Assembly (NCBI GenBank): GCA_012522795.1
Contig: JAAYJT010000014.1
Coordinates: 1,796-65,795 of the forward strand
DNA length: 64,000 nucleotides
Direction of reading: 5' to 3'
Origin: Bacteroidales bacterium
GTDB lineage: Bacteria; Bacteroidota; Bacteroidia; Bacteroidales; JAAYJT01
The first letter of the stretch is position 1, and each line of letters opens with the position of its first letter. The position numbers and the translations under genes were made by a program. The notes under the pieces are model-generated. The model was given only the letters and a program-made list of their open reading frames with translations, was not told the origin of the DNA and did no database searches. Below, piece by piece: positions 38,048-45,857 of this stretch.

Positions 38048-38794
38048 TTATTGAACCGTAATTTGTTGTTTATCAGTGTTGTGTCTTTCAAAGACTGACA
38101 ATATTATATAAAGAAGCAGGATTGCCGGCGAAGATTGGAATCCTAAGAAAACAACCAGGATAAAAGTCAGAACCAGAAAGATCACTTTGAATTTAATAAA
38201 ATTCCATTTTAACGATTTTGTTTTCAAACCCATTAACGGGAGTTTCGATATCAGCAATATGCTGAGCAATATGGTTAATCCCAGAAGTGCAAAATAATTA
38301 TGAGTGAGGCTGGAAAGTAAATTCGCATAAAGCCCACCGGAATTGTTTTGCAGATAGATAAATGTGAGAGAAGCTATAAACAATGCATTTGCAGGGGTAG
38401 GCAAGCCTTTGAATGAAAAAGTTTGTGAATCATCAATATTAAATTTGGCTAAACGCAATGCTGAGAAAATCGCAATCAGAAAGGCAGGTAAAGCGTTATA
38501 GTTCAATATTTGATTTGCAGGGAAAGGTGAGGAATTGACCATTAACATATATAATATTCCCGAAGGTGCTACTCCAAATGAAACAACATCAGAAAGGGAA
38601 TCGAGCTGTTTGCCGATCTCACTTTTTGCATTTAATAAGCGGGCTGCAGTCCCATCAAAAAAATCAAATATTGAAGCAACAAATATCAATACTGAAGAAT
38701 AAATGTATGATCCATTAAAAATCAACACAATAGCTATGCATCCACTGAAAAGGTTCAACAGTGTCAGTAAATTGGGAATGAATCGTACGACCAT
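38048..38794 (-). CDS. pssA: CDP-diacylglycerol--serine O-phosphatidyltransferase
   Basis: The CDP-alcohol phosphatidyltransferase motif DFFDGTAARLLNAKSEIGKQLDSLSDVVSFG is present in a polytopic membrane protein of 248 aa. Confidence 0.85.
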   Translation of the reverse strand: MVVRFIPNLLTLLNLFSGCIAIVLIFNGSYIYSSVLIFVASIFDFFDGTAARLLNAKSEIGKQLDSLSDVVSFGVAPSGILYMLMVNSSPFPANQILNYNALPAFLIAIFSALRLAKFNIDDSQTFSFKGLPTPANALFIASLTFIYLQNNSGGLYANLLSSLTHNYFALLGLTILLSILLISKLPLMGLKTKSLKWNFIKFKVIFLVLTFILVVFLGFQSSPAILLLYIILSVFERHNTDKQQITVQ

Positions 38795-38933
38795 GCCATC
38801 ATTTTTTTGCGAAAATAACTTTTAATCCTGTATCAGATTATTCTTAGTCTTTTATTTTGTTTGTCATTCAAGAATCAAAATACCTGAAAGATTAAAAAGT
38901 GCTTATTAAAAGCTTTGATTAATAACTTATATA

Positions 38934-38941
38934 TATTTTTG
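38934..38941 (+). promoter_or_regulatory. Candidate -7 promoter motif (TAnnTTTG) for the cytochrome/rhodanese cluster
   Basis: TATTTTTG lies ~80 nt upstream of the ATG at 39022, with a TTTG at 38914-38917 upstream of it. Motif match only. Confidence 0.3.
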
Positions 38942-39021
38942 CATACGTTTTAAGGATTTTATATGAGTGTTAAGATTTAACTAATTGTAATTAAAGTAAT
39001 TAGCAACTTATATTAAGGATT

Positions 39022-40608
39022 ATGCAACATTTGAGAACCATTATCACTTTTTTATTGGCGGTGGTAGCTCCGTTGGCAATTATTACCCTTGTTCTTCGGG
39101 AAGCGCGACAGGATCATGCTTTACTTGATGGATTGCAGGAAGAATATAATAAGGTTCATCAGTTGGGGGTTGATCATGGTAAACATGCCGTACTTCAGCA
39201 GGATTTTACTAATCCTCATTTGATCACGGCAGCATGTCTTTCATGTCATACTGAAAGGGGAAAAGAGGTACTTGAGAGCAGCCACTGGAAATGGGAACGC
39301 GAAGCCTATATACCCGGTAAAGGTGTTACTTATCTTGGCAAAAAGTCGTTGCTAAATAATTTTTGCACCGGTATTGCTTCAAACGAAGGCTCATGCAACC
39401 GTTGTCATCCAGGATATGGCTGGAAAGACAAAACATTTGATTTTACAAACGAGTATAATATTGATTGCCTTATCTGTCATGATAATACCGGTTTGTACGA
39501 GAAGGCTCCCGGTAGTGCTGGTTATCCGTATATGGATGAGAATGCGCCGGATTATAAAAAGATACTTGCAAATATTGGCAGACCCAAGCGTGAGAATTGC
39601 GGTTATTGCCATTTTAATGGTGGCGGAGGCAATAATGTAAAACATGGAGACCTGGAAATAGCTTTACTTAGTGCCGACAGAACTATTGATGTTCATATGG
39701 GCGTTGACGGAACTAATATGCAATGTGTAGCATGTCATCCGGCTGAGAACCATAAAATGCTTGGAAGATATTATGGTGTTTCATCATCAAATACACAAAG
39801 GGCTACTTGTGAGCGCTGTCATACTTCAGTGCCGCATACCAATAATAAGCTTAACGAACACACAATAAAAGTAGCATGTCAAACCTGCCATATACCGATA
39901 TATGCCAAGGTAAATGCCACTAAAACCGAATGGAACTGGTCAACTGCCACACAACGCAAAGAGGGGTTGCCTTATCAGGTTCTCGATTCTTTGGGTAACG
40001 AAATGTACACTTCTATCAAAGGCGATTTTACATGGCAAAGAATGGTGAAGCCTGAATATATATGGTTTAATGGAACTGCTGATCATCATCTGGTAACAGA
40101 AAAAATTAATCTTAATGATTTGCCAATGAAAATCAATACTTTGAACGGAGAATACCGTGACAGGAACAGTAAAATTTATCCGACAAAAGTTCACAGAGGA
40201 AAACAACCCTATGATCCTGTGAATCTGACTATTATTCAACCAAAGCTTTGGGATGCCGAAGCCAATAAAGGTGCATTATGGATAGATCTTGATTGGGAAG
40301 CAGCTTTACGAACCGGAATGGAATATCTTGATTTGCCTTATAGCGGCCAGCATGATTTTATTCCTACTGAAATGTTTTTGCCCGTAAACCATATGGTGTC
40401 ACTTGCCAGCGAATCGTTACAATGCAGCGATTGCCATACCCGAAATGAAGGACGACTTGCAAATCTGACTGATTTCTACATGCCCGGTCGTGATTATAAT
40501 GCTGGTATTGATACTTTAGGAAAACTGCTTATTATATTCTCAATATTTGGAGCTATTATTCATGGTTCTATCAGAATTATTACACACCGAAAAAGACAAG
40601 CCAAATAA
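39022..40608 (+). CDS. otr: Octaheme c-type cytochrome, tetrathionate reductase (OTR) family, with N- and C-terminal membrane anchors
   Basis: It has exactly eight CxxCH motifs (CLSCH, CNRCH, CLICH, CGYCH, CVACH, CERCH, CQTCH, CSDCH). The N-terminus is hydrophobic (IITFLLAVVAPLAIITLVL). A C-terminal hydrophobic helix (LLIIFSIFGAIIHGSIRII) is followed by HRKRQAK. Confidence 0.8.
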   Translation: MQHLRTIITFLLAVVAPLAIITLVLREARQDHALLDGLQEEYNKVHQLGVDHGKHAVLQQDFTNPHLITAACLSCHTERGKEVLESSHWKWEREAYIPGKGVTYLGKKSLLNNFCTGIASNEGSCNRCHPGYGWKDKTFDFTNEYNIDCLICHDNTGLYEKAPGSAGYPYMDENAPDYKKILANIGRPKRENCGYCHFNGGGGNNVKHGDLEIALLSADRTIDVHMGVDGTNMQCVACHPAENHKMLGRYYGVSSSNTQRATCERCHTSVPHTNNKLNEHTIKVACQTCHIPIYAKVNATKTEWNWSTATQRKEGLPYQVLDSLGNEMYTSIKGDFTWQRMVKPEYIWFNGTADHHLVTEKINLNDLPMKINTLNGEYRDRNSKIYPTKVHRGKQPYDPVNLTIIQPKLWDAEANKGALWIDLDWEAALRTGMEYLDLPYSGQHDFIPTEMFLPVNHMVSLASESLQCSDCHTRNEGRLANLTDFYMPGRDYNAGIDTLGKLLIIFSIFGAIIHGSIRIITHRKRQAK

Positions 40609-40624
40609 CTATAACTAATCTACT

Positions 40625-41269
40625 ATGAGCAAAACTTATAAAGCATACGTTTACAAGGGCTTTGAAAGGTTCTGGCACTGGACACAGGCTTTCCTTATTA
40701 TGTTTCTGGCATTAACAGGATTTGAAATCCATAGCAGTTATTCCCTGTTTGGTTTCGAAACTGCAGTTGATCTGCATAGCAAGGCTGCATGGGCTTTTAT
40801 AGTACTTATTGTATTTGCAATATTCTGGCATATTACCACAGGTGAATGGAAACAATACCTTCCGACTACAAGGAATTTGAAAGCCCAGATAGAATTCTAC
40901 ATTACCGGGATTTTCCGCAATGCACCACATCCTACAAAGAAGACCCTGATAAGTAAGTTAAATCCTTTACAGCGTCTGGTATACCTTGGTCTTAAAGTTT
41001 TCATAATACCTGTTATGGTTATTTCGGGATTGTTATACTTGTTTTTCAGGTATCCGCAATCAGGCTCCATTAAATCATTAGCAGTCGAAAATCTTGAGAT
41101 CATAGCATTAATACATACTGCAGGAGCATTCCTGCTGGTAGCTTTCCTGATTGTACATCTTTATCTAATAACCACTGGTCATACCATTACTTCGAACCTT
41201 AAAGCCATGATAACCGGATGGGAAGAATTAGAAGAAGATGAACCAGATACTAACGAAGCCAAGCAATAA
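40625..41269 (+). CDS. Membrane cytochrome b (PF01292 / thiosulfate-reductase PhsC-like family)
   Basis: 214 aa with 4-5 TM segments, an N-terminal FERFWHWTQA motif and conserved His residues in the TM helices (FWHITTGEW, IHTAGAFLL, VHLYL). Confidence 0.75.
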   Translation: MSKTYKAYVYKGFERFWHWTQAFLIMFLALTGFEIHSSYSLFGFETAVDLHSKAAWAFIVLIVFAIFWHITTGEWKQYLPTTRNLKAQIEFYITGIFRNAPHPTKKTLISKLNPLQRLVYLGLKVFIIPVMVISGLLYLFFRYPQSGSIKSLAVENLEIIALIHTAGAFLLVAFLIVHLYLITTGHTITSNLKAMITGWEELEEDEPDTNEAKQ

Positions 41270-41290
41270 ATTTTAAATCACCGAATATAA

Positions 41291-42406
41291 TTGAAAATGC
41301 ATAAATTAAATACATACAGTATGTATGCACAATATTTTCGTAAAGCATTGTTAATGCTTTTTCTTGGATTTTTGGGAACAACCTTTTTATCTTGCGGCAA
41401 AAAAGGTTCTTCAGAAATAAATGAGTCAGCCGGAACAGAAAAAACCATAATACTTGCCAAATGGCTGGAGGAAAACGGCAATTACACAAATAGCCCTGAA
41501 ATTCCTTCTATTGTTGATTCTCATGTAGTGTATTCAATGAGGAATGATAATATTCTGGTTATTGATCTTCGTCCTGAAGCCGATTTTAATGAAGGACATA
41601 TTGAACATGCAATAAATTTAAAACAATCAGAAGTGATTGACTTTTTCAAAAACAAAATAAATCCCGGATCTTTTAAGGGTATCTTTTTTGTTTGCAACAA
41701 TATGAGTCGGTCTGGATATACTGCGGGAGTCATGCGTTTATTGGGCTACGACAATGTTTTTGCTATTCGTTTTGGAATGAGCGGATGGGATAGAAAAGTA
41801 GCTGAAAAATACTGGATTGCTAATGTCAGCAACCAATTACTTGGCAAACTTGAAAGCACAGTCAATCCTAAAAACAAGCCTGGTAAACTGCCTGAAATAA
41901 AAGTTTCCGGAAATACCGGATATGATATTGCCATGGAGAGGGCAGAGGAGATCCTGAAAAACAATGAAAATTATGGTGTTACAATAAAGGAATGGCTTGA
42001 GAACCCTGAAGCATATTATACTATTTGTTACTGGCCCGAAGATAAATATATCAGTAACGGACATTTGCCGGGATCAGTTCAGTACCAGCCAAAAAGTTCA
42101 TTGGGTCTGGATATGGAACTTAATACACTGCCTGTAGATAAGCCAATAGTGATTTATTGTTATTCCGGGCAACACAGCACTTATGTTACTTCATACCTAC
42201 GTATGCTTGGGTATGACGCACGCTCACTGGTATATGGATCCAATGCTTTTATACATGAAACAATGGCTAAAACCGAACCTAGACCTACCCGTACTTTTAC
42301 TGTGAATTTAATCCAGAACCTTCCGGTGGTTAGTACCGAAATTACTGAACCTGCTGAGGTTGATATTGTAAAAGAAGAGAAGATCAAAGTAATGGGCGGT
42401 TGCTAA
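41291..42406 (+). CDS. Lipoprotein with two rhodanese domains and a C-terminal ...VMGGC tail
   Basis: It has a lipobox (GTTFLSCGKK). Domain 1 has VIDLRPEADFNEGHIEHAIN and the active-site loop FVCNNMSRS. Domain 2 has the loop IYCYSGQHS. The protein ends KIKVMGGC-stop. The real start is probably the ATG at 41297 or later. Confidence 0.75.
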   Translation: MKMHKLNTYSMYAQYFRKALLMLFLGFLGTTFLSCGKKGSSEINESAGTEKTIILAKWLEENGNYTNSPEIPSIVDSHVVYSMRNDNILVIDLRPEADFNEGHIEHAINLKQSEVIDFFKNKINPGSFKGIFFVCNNMSRSGYTAGVMRLLGYDNVFAIRFGMSGWDRKVAEKYWIANVSNQLLGKLESTVNPKNKPGKLPEIKVSGNTGYDIAMERAEEILKNNENYGVTIKEWLENPEAYYTICYWPEDKYISNGHLPGSVQYQPKSSLGLDMELNTLPVDKPIVIYCYSGQHSTYVTSYLRMLGYDARSLVYGSNAFIHETMAKTEPRPTRTFTVNLIQNLPVVSTEITEPAEVDIVKEEKIKVMGGC

Positions 42407-42498
42407 ATGGCTTTGAATATTAATTGCCAGACATTAAAAATTGAATAAGAATATTAGATCATAAAAAATATAAGAGAATAACAAACGAATAAAATATT

Positions 42499-43020
42499 AT
42501 GGAAAATAAATCAACTTCTTACATGAATTCATACCTGGCGGGTTTTCTGCTTGGGTTGGTTCTGATTGCTGCATTTTTTGTTACAGGTCGGGGATTAGGG
42601 GCAAGCGGTGCAGCTAAAAGCGTTGTAATATCTTCGGTGGCAACAGTAGCCCCTGAATATGCGCAATCGCATCCGTTTTATGCTGAGTTTTTCCGTGAAG
42701 GTCCCGGCCCAATGAAAAACTGGCTTGTTTATCTGACCCTTGGAGTGCTTGCCGGTGCATTCTTTTCAGGTGCCATGTCAGGCAGGCTGGGTTTAAAAGT
42801 AGAGAAAGGGCCGAGGATCAGTTCAGCCACACGACTTGTTTTTGCACTTTTAGGTGGTTTAATGTTTGGACTCGGAGCACAATTCGGGAGGGGATGTACC
42901 AGTGGTACTGCCCTTACAGGTATGGCTGTTCTTTCAACAGCCGGATTCGTTACTATGATGGCTATTTTCGGAACCGGATATGTGCTTGCTTATTTTTTCA
43001 GAAAACTTTGGCTTAAATAG
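42499..43020 (+). CDS. YeeE/YedE family sulfur-compound transporter, half-size subunit
   Basis: 173 aa with ~4 TM segments and the characteristic Cys motif GRGCTSG. Confidence 0.8.
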   Translation: MENKSTSYMNSYLAGFLLGLVLIAAFFVTGRGLGASGAAKSVVISSVATVAPEYAQSHPFYAEFFREGPGPMKNWLVYLTLGVLAGAFFSGAMSGRLGLKVEKGPRISSATRLVFALLGGLMFGLGAQFGRGCTSGTALTGMAVLSTAGFVTMMAIFGTGYVLAYFFRKLWLK

Positions 43021-43033
43021 AAAGGAGTAAATA

Positions 43034-44260
43034 ATGGGACCATTAATACCTCATGGATTCATCAATCCCGACCTTAATCTTTTCTTTGCTTTTATAATAG
43101 GTTTGGGCTTTGGTTACGTTCTCGAACAGGCAGGTTTTTCATCTTCACGAAAGCTTGCAGGCGTGTTTTATGGTTATGATTTTGTGGTGCTTCGCGTGTT
43201 TTTTACAGCAGCTATCACAGCAGCTACAGGTTTGTTGTTACTGAGTTATCTTGGTTGGCTTGATTACAGTATATTGTATATTAACCCTACATTTTTGTGG
43301 TCGGCTATTGTTGGTGGTGTTATTATGGGCTTTGGATTTATCATGGGTGGGTTTTGTCCGGGAACAAGCCTTGTGGGAGCTGTTATCGGAAAAATTGATG
43401 CCATGTTTTTTGTGATAGGTATGTTTATCGGGATCTTTATTTTTGGCCAGTTTTACGAAAGTTTTGAAAGCATTTATCTGGGTTATGGCCTGGGACCAAT
43501 ATTTGTGTATGAATCTCTTGGCATAGACCGCGATTTGTTTGTTCTGATCCTGGTACTTGTTGCACTTACAGCCTTTTATATTACACAGCGTATTGAAGAC
43601 AAGGTTAATGATACTCCTATAAATGTAAGGGAATCAAGACCATCATATGCCATACCAGCTTCATTAATTATTCTTGCTGCTGTTTTGCTTCTTGTTCTTC
43701 CTTCGAGTCCGCGCAATAGCTGGGATGAAACTGATGCTGAAACCATATTAAGCGAAATGGCAGCCCGTAAGCATTACACCAGCCCTGATGAAGTAGCATT
43801 TAGCATTATGCAGGGTAAGGATTATCCGGCTTTGCTTGTTGATGTGAGAGCACCTGAAGATTTCAAGTATTTTACACTTCCAGGTGCTATAAATATTCCT
43901 TTGAATCAAATATTAAACCGTCGCTGGGAATCAACATTATTGAATCCTGAATATAAAGTGGCATTGTTCTCATATTCCGATACTCATGCTGAAGAGGCAT
44001 GGCTACTTACACGGCGTGCCGGATACAAGGACATAAAAGTTCTGGAAGGCGGGCTTAATAATTTCTTACATACTGTTTTTCTTAGAGATATTGAGCCTGA
44101 AAGAAAACGTCCGGACTGTATTGAAATGCATACCGCAAGATTTCAAAAAGAAGCAAAAGAATACTTCAAGATGGGGAAAGCTATTAAAAAAGTGGAAAAA
44201 GCACCCACCCCGGTTATTAAGATCGTAGAAATTGAAAAACCTGTTTCAGGCGGATGTTAA
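43034..44260 (+). CDS. YeeE/YedE half-size subunit fused to a Cys-less rhodanese-like domain, with a C-terminal ...VSGGC tail
   Basis: The N-terminal ~220 aa are polytopic and carry the GGFCPGTS motif. The C-terminal rhodanese-like domain (LLVDVRAPEDF...GAINIP) has the loop ALFSYSDTH, with Ser where the catalytic Cys is expected. The protein ends KPVSGGC-stop. Confidence 0.75.
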   Translation: MGPLIPHGFINPDLNLFFAFIIGLGFGYVLEQAGFSSSRKLAGVFYGYDFVVLRVFFTAAITAATGLLLLSYLGWLDYSILYINPTFLWSAIVGGVIMGFGFIMGGFCPGTSLVGAVIGKIDAMFFVIGMFIGIFIFGQFYESFESIYLGYGLGPIFVYESLGIDRDLFVLILVLVALTAFYITQRIEDKVNDTPINVRESRPSYAIPASLIILAAVLLLVLPSSPRNSWDETDAETILSEMAARKHYTSPDEVAFSIMQGKDYPALLVDVRAPEDFKYFTLPGAINIPLNQILNRRWESTLLNPEYKVALFSYSDTHAEEAWLLTRRAGYKDIKVLEGGLNNFLHTVFLRDIEPERKRPDCIEMHTARFQKEAKEYFKMGKAIKKVEKAPTPVIKIVEIEKPVSGGC

Positions 44261-44279
44261 TTTATAAAAACCTCTAGTT

Positions 44280-44891
44280 ATGAATAATTCTCAGACTCAG
44301 TTATTAAATATAGGTGCTTTTCTATTTGTTGGATTAGCTGTTCTATTTATGCTTGTTCAATATTTAATAGGACCGGACTATAAAATGAACAATGCTGGTA
44401 TGCTTGACGAAGCCGTAAATCATAATCGTTGGGTAATGCCTGTAGATATTAAAAACATGGCAGAATCAAGTCGTTTGCAGGATTATCTTCTCGTTGATCT
44501 TCGCGAAACTGTGGATTATAATCATGGTAGCTTACCTGGTGCTATAAATATTCCTTTTGATGAATTGCTAGAAAAAAAGTCGTTAAAGCATTTTAAAACT
44601 AAGAAGCCTTTGTTGCTTTTTTCAGAAAAAGAATCCCGGGCTTCGGTTGCAGGATTATTACTGTCAGGCAAAGGCATTAATAATGTTTTTGTAATGGCAA
44701 ACGATTATAATTATGTGAAAGAAAATGTTTTGGAAAATTACAAACCTTCTTCCGCATATATAAACAGCGAAAAGGCTGAATATGATTACTCAAGATTTTT
44801 CAAGGCAGCACCCCAACAAGCTGTTCAGCCTGCTGCTTTGAAACCAAAGATCATAAAAACAGAAGTAATTTCTGTGGGTGGAGGATGCTGA
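44280..44891 (+). CDS. Membrane-anchored single rhodanese-like domain protein (Cys-less loop), with a C-terminal ...VGGGC tail
   Basis: It has an N-terminal TM helix (IGAFLFVGLAVLFMLVQYLI) and LLVDLRETVDYNHGSLPGAINIP. The loop LLFSEKESR lacks Cys. The protein ends VISVGGGC-stop. Confidence 0.7.
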   Translation: MNNSQTQLLNIGAFLFVGLAVLFMLVQYLIGPDYKMNNAGMLDEAVNHNRWVMPVDIKNMAESSRLQDYLLVDLRETVDYNHGSLPGAINIPFDELLEKKSLKHFKTKKPLLLFSEKESRASVAGLLLSGKGINNVFVMANDYNYVKENVLENYKPSSAYINSEKAEYDYSRFFKAAPQQAVQPAALKPKIIKTEVISVGGGC

Positions 44892-45131
44892 TTTGTGTTT
44901 GAACAGACTTAAGAATAGTTAGCTGATCCTAAATCAGCCAGTTTCTGACTATTATGCTGCCTGTGATTGACTATTGAAAAGGCAGGTGATTTATTGCTTT
45001 TACTTTGGCAATTTCTGAAAATTGTGTTATTTCGCCATTTGCTTTATTTTAGGAGTTGTTTTTGAATTTGTTTTATTAAACACAAACACTAAATGTTTGT
45101 TAATTAATTGAACTATCAAAATTAACCATCT

Positions 45132-45857
45132 ATGAAAGATAAAATTGAATCAATTGGTACTTTATGGAAGCGTGAGAAACTCGCCACATTGGAATGGGAA
45201 GTTGAATTTGACGAATTATTGCTAGAGGATAAAGATCCTTTGCCCGGATATTATGATCATTTTGAGATCCCATCGCAGGAAAAAGATTTTCTGCCGCGCT
45301 GGATCTTTGCTGTTTTACGTCAAACCGGTCCCTGCGATACTGATCACCTGATTGATGTTGCGACACATATTAAAAAAGAAAAAGCTTTTTCTTTTGGTGC
45401 AGTTCCAGGCTATCTCACACTTAATAATGAAGTTGTGCCATGTATCCGTTTTCAACTCGATGATTACAAGCATCTTGCAGAACTTATAAAAAGTTTTTTA
45501 AAGCATGGTTTTGAATTTGTTAGTGATCGAAAAGTTCCTGCGTATGACAGCCTTATCAAAATCATCAAATTTTTTGATCTTACATTTGTGGATGATTCTA
45601 TTTACAAAGACAATGATTTGCCTGATACTCACTATATTATAATACCCAAAAGGGTTGATTGGGATATTTTTGAAAAACTGACTATCAGTGTTAAAAACAA
45701 TTGTAGTCATAAAATATTTGATGCAGCATTAGTTTCTGCTTACGATAAATCAGGCTTGATTAACATGGTTCGAATCTACGACAGGAAACAGCATATTGAG
45801 AATATCAGGGAAATACGTAATAGGTATCATAGTGAAATAACTTATCTTGACAAATAA
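45132..45857 (+). CDS. Hypothetical protein (no family recognised)
   Basis: 241-aa ORF with normal composition and no TM segment or signal peptide. Confidence 0.55.
   Translation: MKDKIESIGTLWKREKLATLEWEVEFDELLLEDKDPLPGYYDHFEIPSQEKDFLPRWIFAVLRQTGPCDTDHLIDVATHIKKEKAFSFGAVPGYLTLNNEVVPCIRFQLDDYKHLAELIKSFLKHGFEFVSDRKVPAYDSLIKIIKFFDLTFVDDSIYKDNDLPDTHYIIIPKRVDWDIFEKLTISVKNNCSHKIFDAALVSAYDKSGLINMVRIYDRKQHIENIREIRNRYHSEITYLDK

Follow-up and report, generated by a model that had tools for sequence, protein, structure and literature searches.

Three neighbouring rhodanese proteins with a common C terminus

The window analysed here is a stretch of 64,000 nucleotides from a Bacteroidales genome (GenBank assembly GCA_012522795.1, contig JAAYJT010000014.1, positions 1,796 to 65,795 of the forward strand), and it contains an operon of six genes, three of which encode rhodanese-like proteins with the same short C-terminal tail. 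All six genes lie on the plus strand and are tightly packed, with intergenic gaps of 13-92 nt, in the order OTR (an octaheme cytochrome c of the tetrathionate reductase family), cytochrome b, lipoprotein rhodanese, YeeEa, YeeEb-rhodanese fusion and 203-amino-acid (aa) rhodanese. A first-pass annotation, made from the letters of the DNA, had pointed out that the three rhodanese products all end in V-x-G-G-C followed directly by the stop codon, and both the sequence and the list of open reading frames (ORFs) bear this out. The 41291-42406 product terminates in ...KEEKIKVMGGC-TAA (GGC codons at 42395-42403), the 43034-44260 product in ...IEKPVSGGC-TAA (44249-44257) and the 44280-44891 product in ...EVISVGGGC-TGA (44880-44888). 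The genes and their tails are located as follows:

39022..40608, plus strand: OTR, octaheme tetrathionate-reductase-family cytochrome c (TIGR04315, eight CxxCH motifs, homology to 1SP3)
40625..41269, plus strand: membrane cytochrome b, PhsC/cytochrome b561-like (PF01292, 100 bits)
41291..42406, plus strand: lipoprotein with two rhodanese domains and tail (PF00581 twice; lipobox L-S-C35)
42341..42403, plus strand: predicted C-terminal arm of the lipoprotein, approximately residues 351-371, ending V-M-G-G-C (coil, model confidence ~50)
42499..43020, plus strand: YeeEa, homologue of the C-terminal half of YeeE, PmpA-like (PF04143 profile positions 174-309)
43034..44260, plus strand: YeeEb fusion, N-terminal half of YeeE plus rhodanese domain and tail (PF04143 positions 10-196 and PF00581)
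44171..44257, plus strand: predicted C-terminal arm of the fusion, approximately residues 380-408, ending P-V-S-G-G-C (coil, low model confidence)
44280..44891, plus strand: 203-aa signal-anchored protein with a single rhodanese domain and no loop Cys (Ser115) (PF00581)
44805..44888, plus strand: predicted arm of the 203-aa protein, approximately residues 176-203 after the conserved RFFKAAP, ending S-V-G-G-G-C (from the alignment of orthologues)

As a control for chance we went through the six frames of the whole window, which contain 208 stop-to-stop ORFs of 60 aa or more; apart from the three rhodaneses, none of them ends in GGC, nor even in GC. Those of 150 aa or more, 44 in number, comprise 18,635 residues (Gly 6.6%, Cys 0.76%) and contain the GGC tripeptide exactly three times, each time as one of these C termini, whereas the expected chance of such a terminus is approximately 3e-5 per protein. 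A chance origin of the three tails is excluded, and the earlier judgement that chance was very unlikely holds, with no other GGC in the 44 long ORFs.

Beyond the tail the three proteins had been described as a two-domain lipoprotein, a fusion to half of a YeeE channel and a single domain anchored by a transmembrane (TM) segment, and the Pfam and NCBIfam scans agree with all three architectures. The rhodanese domain (PF00581) scores 84, 46.7 and 41.3 bits in the three proteins against a cutoff of 22.2, which establishes rhodanese homology in each, and PF04143 scores 64.9 and 61.1 bits in the two YeeE halves (cutoff 27). YeeEa contains a single Cys, located in a G-R-G-C-T-S-G loop equivalent to that of C293 in StYeeE, and Cys108 of the YeeEb fusion lies in G-G-F-C-P-G-T-S and is equivalent to StYeeE C91. 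The fusion is laid out as a YeeE half, the equivalent of TM helix H7, one extra TM helix, a rhodanese domain without loop Cys, a helix and the tail. The ORF of the lipoprotein begins at a TTG (41291), and because the 96%-identical protein P0133 begins MHKLN, corresponding to an ATG two codons further on, 41297 is the likelier start.

Conservation and genomic company of the tail

The expectation that homologues keep the terminal GGC holds for all three families. For the 203-aa protein, a GGC end and Ser115 are common to 11/11 orthologues (48-95% identity), whose sole invariant Cys is the terminal one. For the fusion, 118 of the 120 best homologues end in GGC, the remainder being one AGC and one truncated sequence, and the only invariant cysteines are C108 in the channel motif and the terminal C408. 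In both membrane-anchored families the tail Cys is the only conserved Cys outside the channel motif. Among 120 homologues of the lipoprotein, 93 end in GGC, 4 more in GGC plus one residue, and approximately 20 distant members lack the tail entirely; G369, G370 and C371 are invariant across 90 aligned homologues, as is the lipobox Cys35. A tail that is absent or freely variable in homologues had been named beforehand as evidence against a functional role: it proved to be mostly conserved, but a tail-less sub-branch of the lipoprotein family does exist.

We also searched 1.84 billion cluster representatives exhaustively with a profile. The best 150 hits included 100 representatives of the short TM-rhodanese type, and of these 87 end in GGC, 7 in GGC plus one residue and 3 in another terminal Cys. 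Further relatives from this search end in GGCD, GGCG, AGCG or xEGC, and the 401-aa lipoprotein rhodanese P0338 ends in ...PPLPSSGGCGG, which is the C-terminal motif of SoxY. A minority of the family tails extend one residue past the Cys (GGCS, GGCL, GGCM, GGCN). Judged from these alignments, purifying selection on the tail is strong in all three paralogous families, which are only approximately 28% identical to one another.

The loop Cys expected of a catalytic rhodanese was found in the lipoprotein and in neither of the two membrane-anchored proteins. In the lipoprotein family it is kept in 120/120 sequences for domain 2 (Cys290) and in 112/120 for domain 1 (Cys135), and by this measure both domains are predicted to be catalytically competent. 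In the fusion family the position is occupied by Ser, Gly or other residues and never by a conserved Cys. The four loop strings given in the first-pass annotation (FVCNNMSRS, IYCYSGQHS, ALFSYSDTH and LLFSEKESR) are each present in the translations, and its reading was correct in that the Cys is kept in the lipoprotein and missing from both membrane-anchored proteins, but the Ser that it saw instead is invariant only in the 203-aa family. The channel cysteines are conserved as well: the Cys of GG[FY]CPGT is present in 83/83 sequences and that of [GA][RK]GCTSG in 79/80, and the YeeEa loop Cys is the only Cys of the protein in 74/80.

We then scanned one genome per GTDB species for the genomic context of these genes. 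At least 496 genomes have a relative of the fusion, and the best 80 loci, from Bacteroidales, Lentimicrobiaceae, Flavobacteriaceae, Ignavibacteriota, Kapabacteria/Chlorobiota and Calditrichota, were examined. They contain 4,154 ORFs of at least 60 aa, of which 170 end in GGC or GGC plus one residue; 168 of the 170 are the rhodaneses described here, and the remaining two are divergent members of the same kind. A search of the 80 loci for selenocysteine variants (GG, then TGA and a short extension) found none. The invariant core of the loci consists of YeeEa, YeeEb and at least one membrane-anchored rhodanese ending in GGC. In many genomes YeeEb is a separate protein of 196 aa followed by one or two signal-anchored rhodanese-GGC proteins of ~205 aa, so that the fusion seen in the window is one of two arrangements, and a minimal module with a single arm occurs in Ignavibacteriota, Kapabacteria and Calditrichota.

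The reductase could be typed in 59 loci with at least 4.5 kb of upstream DNA, and is OTR with cytochrome b in 34, a PhsA/PsrA-like enzyme in 24 and neither in one. In the window, OTR scores 548 bits with TIGR04315 (cutoff 375) and 425 bits over residues 57-475 against Shewanella OTR (PDB 1SP3), and its translation contains eight CxxCH motifs, which together assign it to the OTR family by sequence. It has an N-terminal TM or signal segment and a C-terminal TM anchor with a basic tail, and its heme domain is predicted to be periplasmic. Cytochrome b starts 16 nt 3' of OTR, accompanies OTR in every OTR-type locus and is its presumed quinol-oxidising partner; it matches NF011582 (thiosulfate reductase cytochrome B) with 103 bits, under the cutoff of that model. 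In loci without OTR, the same upstream position is occupied by a twin-arginine-exported molybdenum (Mo)-bisPGD enzyme with a 4Fe-4S subunit and an NrfD-type anchor, and the best model for this enzyme, which could be of the Psr, Phs or Ttr type, is PhsA (NF012032), at 473 bits and below its cutoff of 694. Two loci, L005 and L008, belong to genomes with both modules, each module having its own YeeE pair and arm-bearing rhodanese. Cultured bacteria with the module include Yeosuana aromativorans JCM 12862 (L059, Psr type) and Perlabentimonas gracilis (P0247, OTR type). The co-occurrence with OTR and YeeE that had been anticipated was therefore found in so far as both recur beside these genes, but OTR is not obligatory, being replaced by the molybdoenzyme in 24/59 loci; the constant partner is the split two-cysteine YeeE pair, not OTR.

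The only locus type without an upstream reductase comes from metagenome-assembled genomes of soda-lake sediment Bacteroidales (L021:8429-11717 and L022). It is also the only type in which both fusion and lipoprotein lack the GGC tail, the third rhodanese keeping IGGC, and this module looks to be decaying or re-purposed. Two tail-less relatives of the lipoprotein are located in unrelated gene contexts, and two distant tailed relatives lie inside complete clusters.

The 10-14 residues preceding the GGC differ widely between genomes, ranging from an acidic, strand-like ...IVEIEKPVSGGC to a polybasic ...KKKKKAPAEGGC, and also include ...EEEEGGC and ...GGGGGGC. Within a genome, in contrast, paralogues resemble each other: at position -4, 61/112 same-genome pairs are identical, compared with 12.5% in class-preserving shuffles, the observed value being reached in 0/2000 shuffles, and identity at positions -5 to -12 is likewise above that of the shuffles. 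The rhodanese bodies of such pairs are only 22-45% identical, whereas their tails are 60-100% identical over 10-14 residues. Twelve non-redundant pairs have tails that are at least 80% identical, and 66/143 (46%) of their codons for identical residues differ synonymously, which indicates that selection at the peptide level maintains the identity of the tails. The same synonymous differences, together with the low identity of the bodies, rule out that the identical tails stem from recent duplication or gene conversion. Most simply, all arms of a module would be read by a single partner site.

The charge of the arm follows the type of reductase. Over the last 15 residues, the net charge averages +3.9 in Psr-linked and +0.7 in OTR-linked tails (Mann-Whitney p = 6e-11, uncorrected for phylogeny), and in L005 and L008 the Psr-linked arm has a charge of +6 and the OTR-linked arms of the same genomes +0 to +2. 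The idea that the tails are complementary in charge to the periplasmic loops in the YeeE halves was rejected, since OTR-type and Psr-type loci show no difference in these loops. As the tail charge follows the reductase and the channel loops do not, the reductase is weakly indicated as the reader of the variable segment.

Several further observations concern the surroundings of these genes. A 241-aa ORF directly 3' of the operon (45132-45857, plus strand) has no Pfam or NCBIfam match and was rejected as a member of the module, being kept only in the nearest relative, L001, and placed elsewhere in L035 and L068. On Logan contig SRR28275960_4401 (L085:9001-15953), a distant two-domain lipoprotein rhodanese, P0012, ends in ...GAASCG and lies directly 5' of genes for a PhsA/PsrA-like Mo enzyme, an FeS subunit, an NrfD anchor, a TorD-like chaperone and a three-domain rhodanese lipoprotein; the latter has no terminal Cys, and the locus has no YeeE. 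P0012 may be an independent case of a rhodanese with a near-terminal Cys beside a Psr-type reductase outside the FCB group. In 6/80 loci a beta-barrel gene (PF13372, Alginate_exp), which the window does not have, stands beside the lipoprotein rhodanese. Sites of this gene are L088:6671-7948, L014, L015, L017, L018, more distantly L035 and L039, and L081:1856-3214, and one such gene adjoins the tail-less lipoprotein relative P0244. Anionic sulfur compounds could cross the outer membrane by way of this barrel. In Flavobacteriaceae, a regulator of the Crp/Fnr family is encoded directly 3' of the Psr-type module in L059:12071-12721 (Yeosuana aromativorans), L062 and L080, a hint that anaerobiosis or redox state controls the module in these marine, otherwise aerobic flavobacteria. 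A scan of 38700-45200 for sigma-70 promoters and terminators gave 24 sites against 23.1 in shuffles and was uninformative, as expected for Bacteroidota, and Rfam and tRNA scans of the whole window gave no matches.

Topology and the candidate sulfur-carrier arms

The crystal structure of YeeE provides a reference for the orientation of these proteins in the membrane: its N terminus is outside and its C terminus inside, H1-H6 run from N-out to C-out with Cys loops entering from the cytoplasmic side, H7 reverses the topology, and H8-H13 are N-in/C-in with C293 at the periplasmic side (PMC7449682). A disulfide between C22 and C91 is seen in the same crystal (PMC7449682). The fusion has six hydrophobic segments, which we mapped to H1, H3, H4, H6, the H7 equivalent and one extra TM helix, in agreement with the charges of its loops. 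Across ~80 fusion homologues, the predicted cytoplasmic loops carry a net charge of +1 to +5 and the predicted periplasmic loops one of 0 to -2. The mapping and the loop charges together suggest that the extra helix exports the fused rhodanese domain to the periplasm, and predict YeeEa to be N-in/C-in with its Cys loop facing the periplasm. The stand-alone rhodanese-GGC relatives have signal-anchor N termini rich in MK/R, and the lipoprotein is, by definition, exported. The arms of all three proteins are therefore expected in the periplasm, the predicted location of the OTR heme domain and the YeeEa Cys as well.

Structures of the fusion and the lipoprotein were predicted with AlphaFold2 from alignments of 90-98 sequences. 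In the fusion, the rhodanese domain has a predicted local distance difference test (pLDDT) score of 90-95 and is followed by a helix (362-379) and a coil (380-408) in which the pLDDT falls from 67 to 47. The lipoprotein has a mean pLDDT of 91, with a two-domain core at 95-98 and residues ~351-371 as coil at ~50. Both models bear out the suggestion that structure prediction would find the tails disordered, with ~21-29 disordered residues following confidently folded domains. The top Foldseek matches were single-domain rhodaneses; Foldseek with the low-confidence half-channel did not recover YeeE, and a sequence search of the PDB with the lipoprotein profile returned generic rhodaneses only.

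We propose that the G-G-C-COOH tails are swinging arms, similar to those of SoxY and DsrC, on periplasmic sulfur carriers with a rhodanese scaffold, and that the terminal thiol is the working residue. We assign this reading a probability of roughly 55%. By analogy with those carriers, sulfur would be held covalently on the terminal Cys, and the proposal of the first-pass annotation, that the tails are arms carrying persulfide or thiosulfonate, is partly supported. Going by the conserved anatomy, one carrier would be tethered or fused to a heterodimeric, two-cysteine YeeE-type channel formed by YeeEa and YeeEb, and the signal-anchored single-domain protein and the lipoprotein with its two catalytic rhodanese domains would be further carriers. 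The terminal Cys could be loaded by attacking the S-S bond of tetrathionate, polysulfide or S0; alternatively, the catalytic lipoprotein rhodanese may transfer sulfur to it from thiosulfate, and the loaded forms would be Cys-S-S(n)- or Cys-S-S-SO3-. The slim Gly-Gly-Cys tip would then thread its sulfur into the active site of the periplasmic, quinol-linked reductase encoded in the same module (OTR with cytochrome b in the window, the PhsA/PsrA-like Mo enzyme in other genomes), where the S-S bond would be reductively cleaved; by analogy with SoxY, the Gly-Gly would make the tip of the arm slim enough for narrow funnels. In addition or instead, sulfane sulfur or thiosulfate may be handed to the periplasm-facing YeeEa Cys and then to the YeeEb Cys for import. 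The residues upstream of the GGC would serve as the partner recognition element.

The scheme has several precedents in the literature. SoxY carries its intermediates on a C-terminal arm (PMC11237559), and lucinid symbionts encode a SoxY variant beside otr. The YeeE-like SoxT is a proposed importer of sulfane sulfur from SoxYZ (PMC11582611), YeeE depends on YeeD as an obligatory partner with a single Cys, and sulfur reductases are supplied with sulfur by rhodaneses (PMC6378623). It is tempting to speculate further, although we regard this as doubtful, that OTR and the Psr/Phs-like enzyme of the FCB group act on carrier-bound sulfur rather than on free tetrathionate or polysulfide, and that the carriers also feed a Cys relay across the membrane, from the arm to YeeEa and on to YeeEb. 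If the substrate is carrier-bound, the module would correspond to the Sox carrier system, but in a reductive version tethered to the membrane, and OTR, whose physiological substrate is uncertain so far, would gain a defined protein-bound one.

Some observations weigh against the carrier proposal. The N terminus of the 203-aa protein in the window is without Lys or Arg, so that its periplasmic orientation rests on its homologues. P0252 (L087:5181-6245), a GGC-tailed lipoprotein rhodanese 38% identical to that of the window, lies between MutS2-like and TatD-like genes without a module nearby, with no YeeE or reductase within 5-8 kb. The charge and tail statistics, the p value of 6e-11 included, carry no correction for phylogeny. 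The charge of the outer loops of the channel does not co-vary with that of the tail, which argues weakly against the channel reading the variable segment, and polybasic tails are an odd fit for the anion-selective funnel of Psr.

No rival explanation accounts for as much of the pattern as a sulfur-carrier arm. The arm might be a thiol-disulfide electron relay that forms mixed disulfides with the channel Cys pair, YeeEa and YeeEb acting like CcdA/DsbD, in which case reducing equivalents crossing the membrane would keep periplasmic sulfur enzymes or carriers reduced, or redox or sulfane stress would be sensed. One terminal Cys suffices for mixed-disulfide chemistry, each half of the split YeeE has exactly one conserved Cys, in an inverted-repeat topology, and the C22-C91 disulfide of the YeeE crystal and a weak match of these rhodanese domains to the NCBIfam rhodanese/DsbD-like fusion selenoprotein TsoB point in the same direction. 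The characterised members of the YeeE family, however, transport thiosulfate or sulfane sulfur and not electrons, and a relay would leave unexplained both the strict pairing with S-S-cleaving reductases, which already draw their own electrons from quinol, and the dependence of tail charge on reductase type, so that we consider it unlikely. We regard as improbable a role of the arm as a pseudo-substrate, plug or regulator that gates the mouth of the channel or the funnel of the reductase, possibly in response to sulfane, without catalytic carriage. Although such a role is suggested by a disordered arm tethered directly to a channel, by co-evolving tails that imply a specific docking site, and by the minimal module with its single tethered arm (Ignavibacteriota, Kapabacteria, Calditrichota), the presence of the same arm on two to three different carriers, including the catalytically competent lipoprotein, fits shuttling better than gating, and a gate has no obvious need for an invariant thiol at the extreme terminus.

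Two further explanations concern metal binding and protein sorting. That it is a ligand of a metal or cofactor (heme iron, Mo, Cu/Zn), or part of a metallochaperone, in the maturation or catalysis of the reductase is in keeping with the catalytic His/Cys-ligated hemes of TsdA, SoxAX and MccSep, with the thiolate and carboxylate that a C-terminal Cys supplies, and with the metalloenzyme (OTR or the Mo enzyme) in 58/59 typed loci. It would require one type of arm to serve two unrelated cofactors, c-type hemes and Mo-bisPGD, with tails that contain no second ligand residue (His, Met, Cys), and would leave the fusion to a sulfur channel unexplained, which makes it quite improbable. Slimmer still is the chance of a signal for sorting, processing or lipidation (anchoring, cleavage after Gly-Gly or S-acylation) in a shared maturation pathway, an alternative raised in the first-pass annotation that now looks unlikely. 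A short conserved C-terminal motif common to co-encoded exported proteins, with one extra residue after the Cys in some members, is what such a signal could look like, but each of the three proteins is already anchored by an N-terminal lipid or TM segment, and the 80 loci have no conserved candidate for a processing enzyme. Moreover, the GlyGly-CTERM, PEP-CTERM and type IX secretion system C-terminal domain signals depend on a TM helix or folded domain that follows the motif, whereas here the tail is disordered, has no TM segment and places the Cys last or at most one residue from the end. The tracking of reductase type by tail charge speaks against sorting as well, and to our knowledge ATP-dependent activation of a Gly-Gly is impossible in the periplasm.

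Relation to known sulfur carriers

The closest parallel to the proposed carriers is SoxY, which is also a periplasmic carrier with the reactive Cys on a flexible, Gly-Gly-flanked C-terminal arm that is visited by several enzymes. Hydrophobic and polar residues alternate before the G-G-C in both, and the relative P0338 ends in GGCGG. In contrast, the scaffold here is a rhodanese fold and not the Ig-like sandwich of SoxY (the Pfam and NCBIfam scans give only rhodanese and YeeE, no SoxY), the window tails are G-G-C-COOH with the Cys as last residue and no trailing G-G, the carriers are membrane- or lipid-anchored with one fused to a channel, and their partners are reductases (OTR/Psr-like) instead of the oxidative SoxXA/B/CD. 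No SoxZ, SoxXA or SoxB is found among the six cluster genes or the recurring neighbours in the 80 loci. In DsrC and TusE, similarly, a flexible C-terminal arm is tipped with a conserved Cys, and these small proteins act as a protein-bound sulfur co-substrate; DsrC is cytoplasmic, with a fold of its own and two arm cysteines. The DsrC trisulfide is reduced by a quinone-linked membrane complex (PMC6378623). The proteins described here differ in having one Cys per arm, a rhodanese fold, a predicted periplasmic location and up to three carriers per module.

Rhodanese-fold suppliers of sulfur to Psr/Sre-type reductases are represented by Sud of Wolinella and SbdP of Aquifex, in which the sulfur resides on the canonical Cys of the active-site loop. 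The membrane-anchored carriers here have no loop Cys and bear their sole conserved thiol on a disordered arm, and the association extends to a heme enzyme (OTR) and a YeeE channel. In Caldithrix abyssi, Psr/Phs genes beside two single-domain sulfurtransferases have been mentioned in passing. With YeeE-YeeD (TsuA-TsuB), SoxT and PmpA/PmpB the system shares a Cys-lined YeeE/YedE-family channel in need of a dedicated single-Cys partner, natural fusions being present, and with PmpA/PmpB also the split of the channel into halves. YeeD, however, has a TusA fold and acts at the cytoplasmic face, whereas the partner here has a rhodanese fold and is predicted at the periplasmic face, and YeeEb keeps an H7-like helix and a further TM segment that would export the domain. 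Pfam and NCBIfam found no TusA-like gene in the cluster, and the TsuA models score 33 and 28 on the YeeE halves against cutoffs of 400 and 645, so that these do not belong to the single nine-TM TsuA type. ThiS, MoaD and Urm1 also carry sulfur on a flexible C-terminal Gly-Gly, as a thiocarboxylate on the terminal Gly that is formed after ATP-dependent adenylation, in the cytoplasm and on a ubiquitin fold, whereas the tails described here have a Cys after the Gly-Gly and belong to predicted periplasmic rhodaneses.

In the literature searched we found no description of the GGC tail or of a YeeE-rhodanese fusion, and neighbouring sulfurtransferase genes are mentioned only in passing; genome papers contain only remarks on nearby sulfurtransferase genes or on a cluster of Otr with cytochrome b561. 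The system combines a terminal arm in place of a catalytic Cys, a predicted periplasmic fusion to a channel half, pairing with either OTR or a Psr-like enzyme and arms that evolve in concert, and none of these four elements appears in that literature.

Carriers with arms, SoxY and DsrC, are central to sulfur oxidation and sulfate reduction, and we know of no swinging-arm Cys carrier for the periplasmic reduction of tetrathionate, polysulfide or thiosulfate. If the proposal is correct, these proteins would form a third carrier class, in which the catalytic Cys of a rhodanese scaffold has been moved to the C terminus. This would explain the seemingly 'inactive' rhodaneses encoded beside OTR and Psr/Phs genes in hundreds of genomes of Bacteroidota, Ignavibacteriota, Calditrichota and Chlorobiota, and would give OTR a concrete and testable physiological substrate. 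The natural fusion would fix the place where a partner docks on a YeeE-type channel, which bears on how such channels pass sulfur. The G-G-C terminus itself is a simple sequence marker with which such modules can be annotated in metagenomes.

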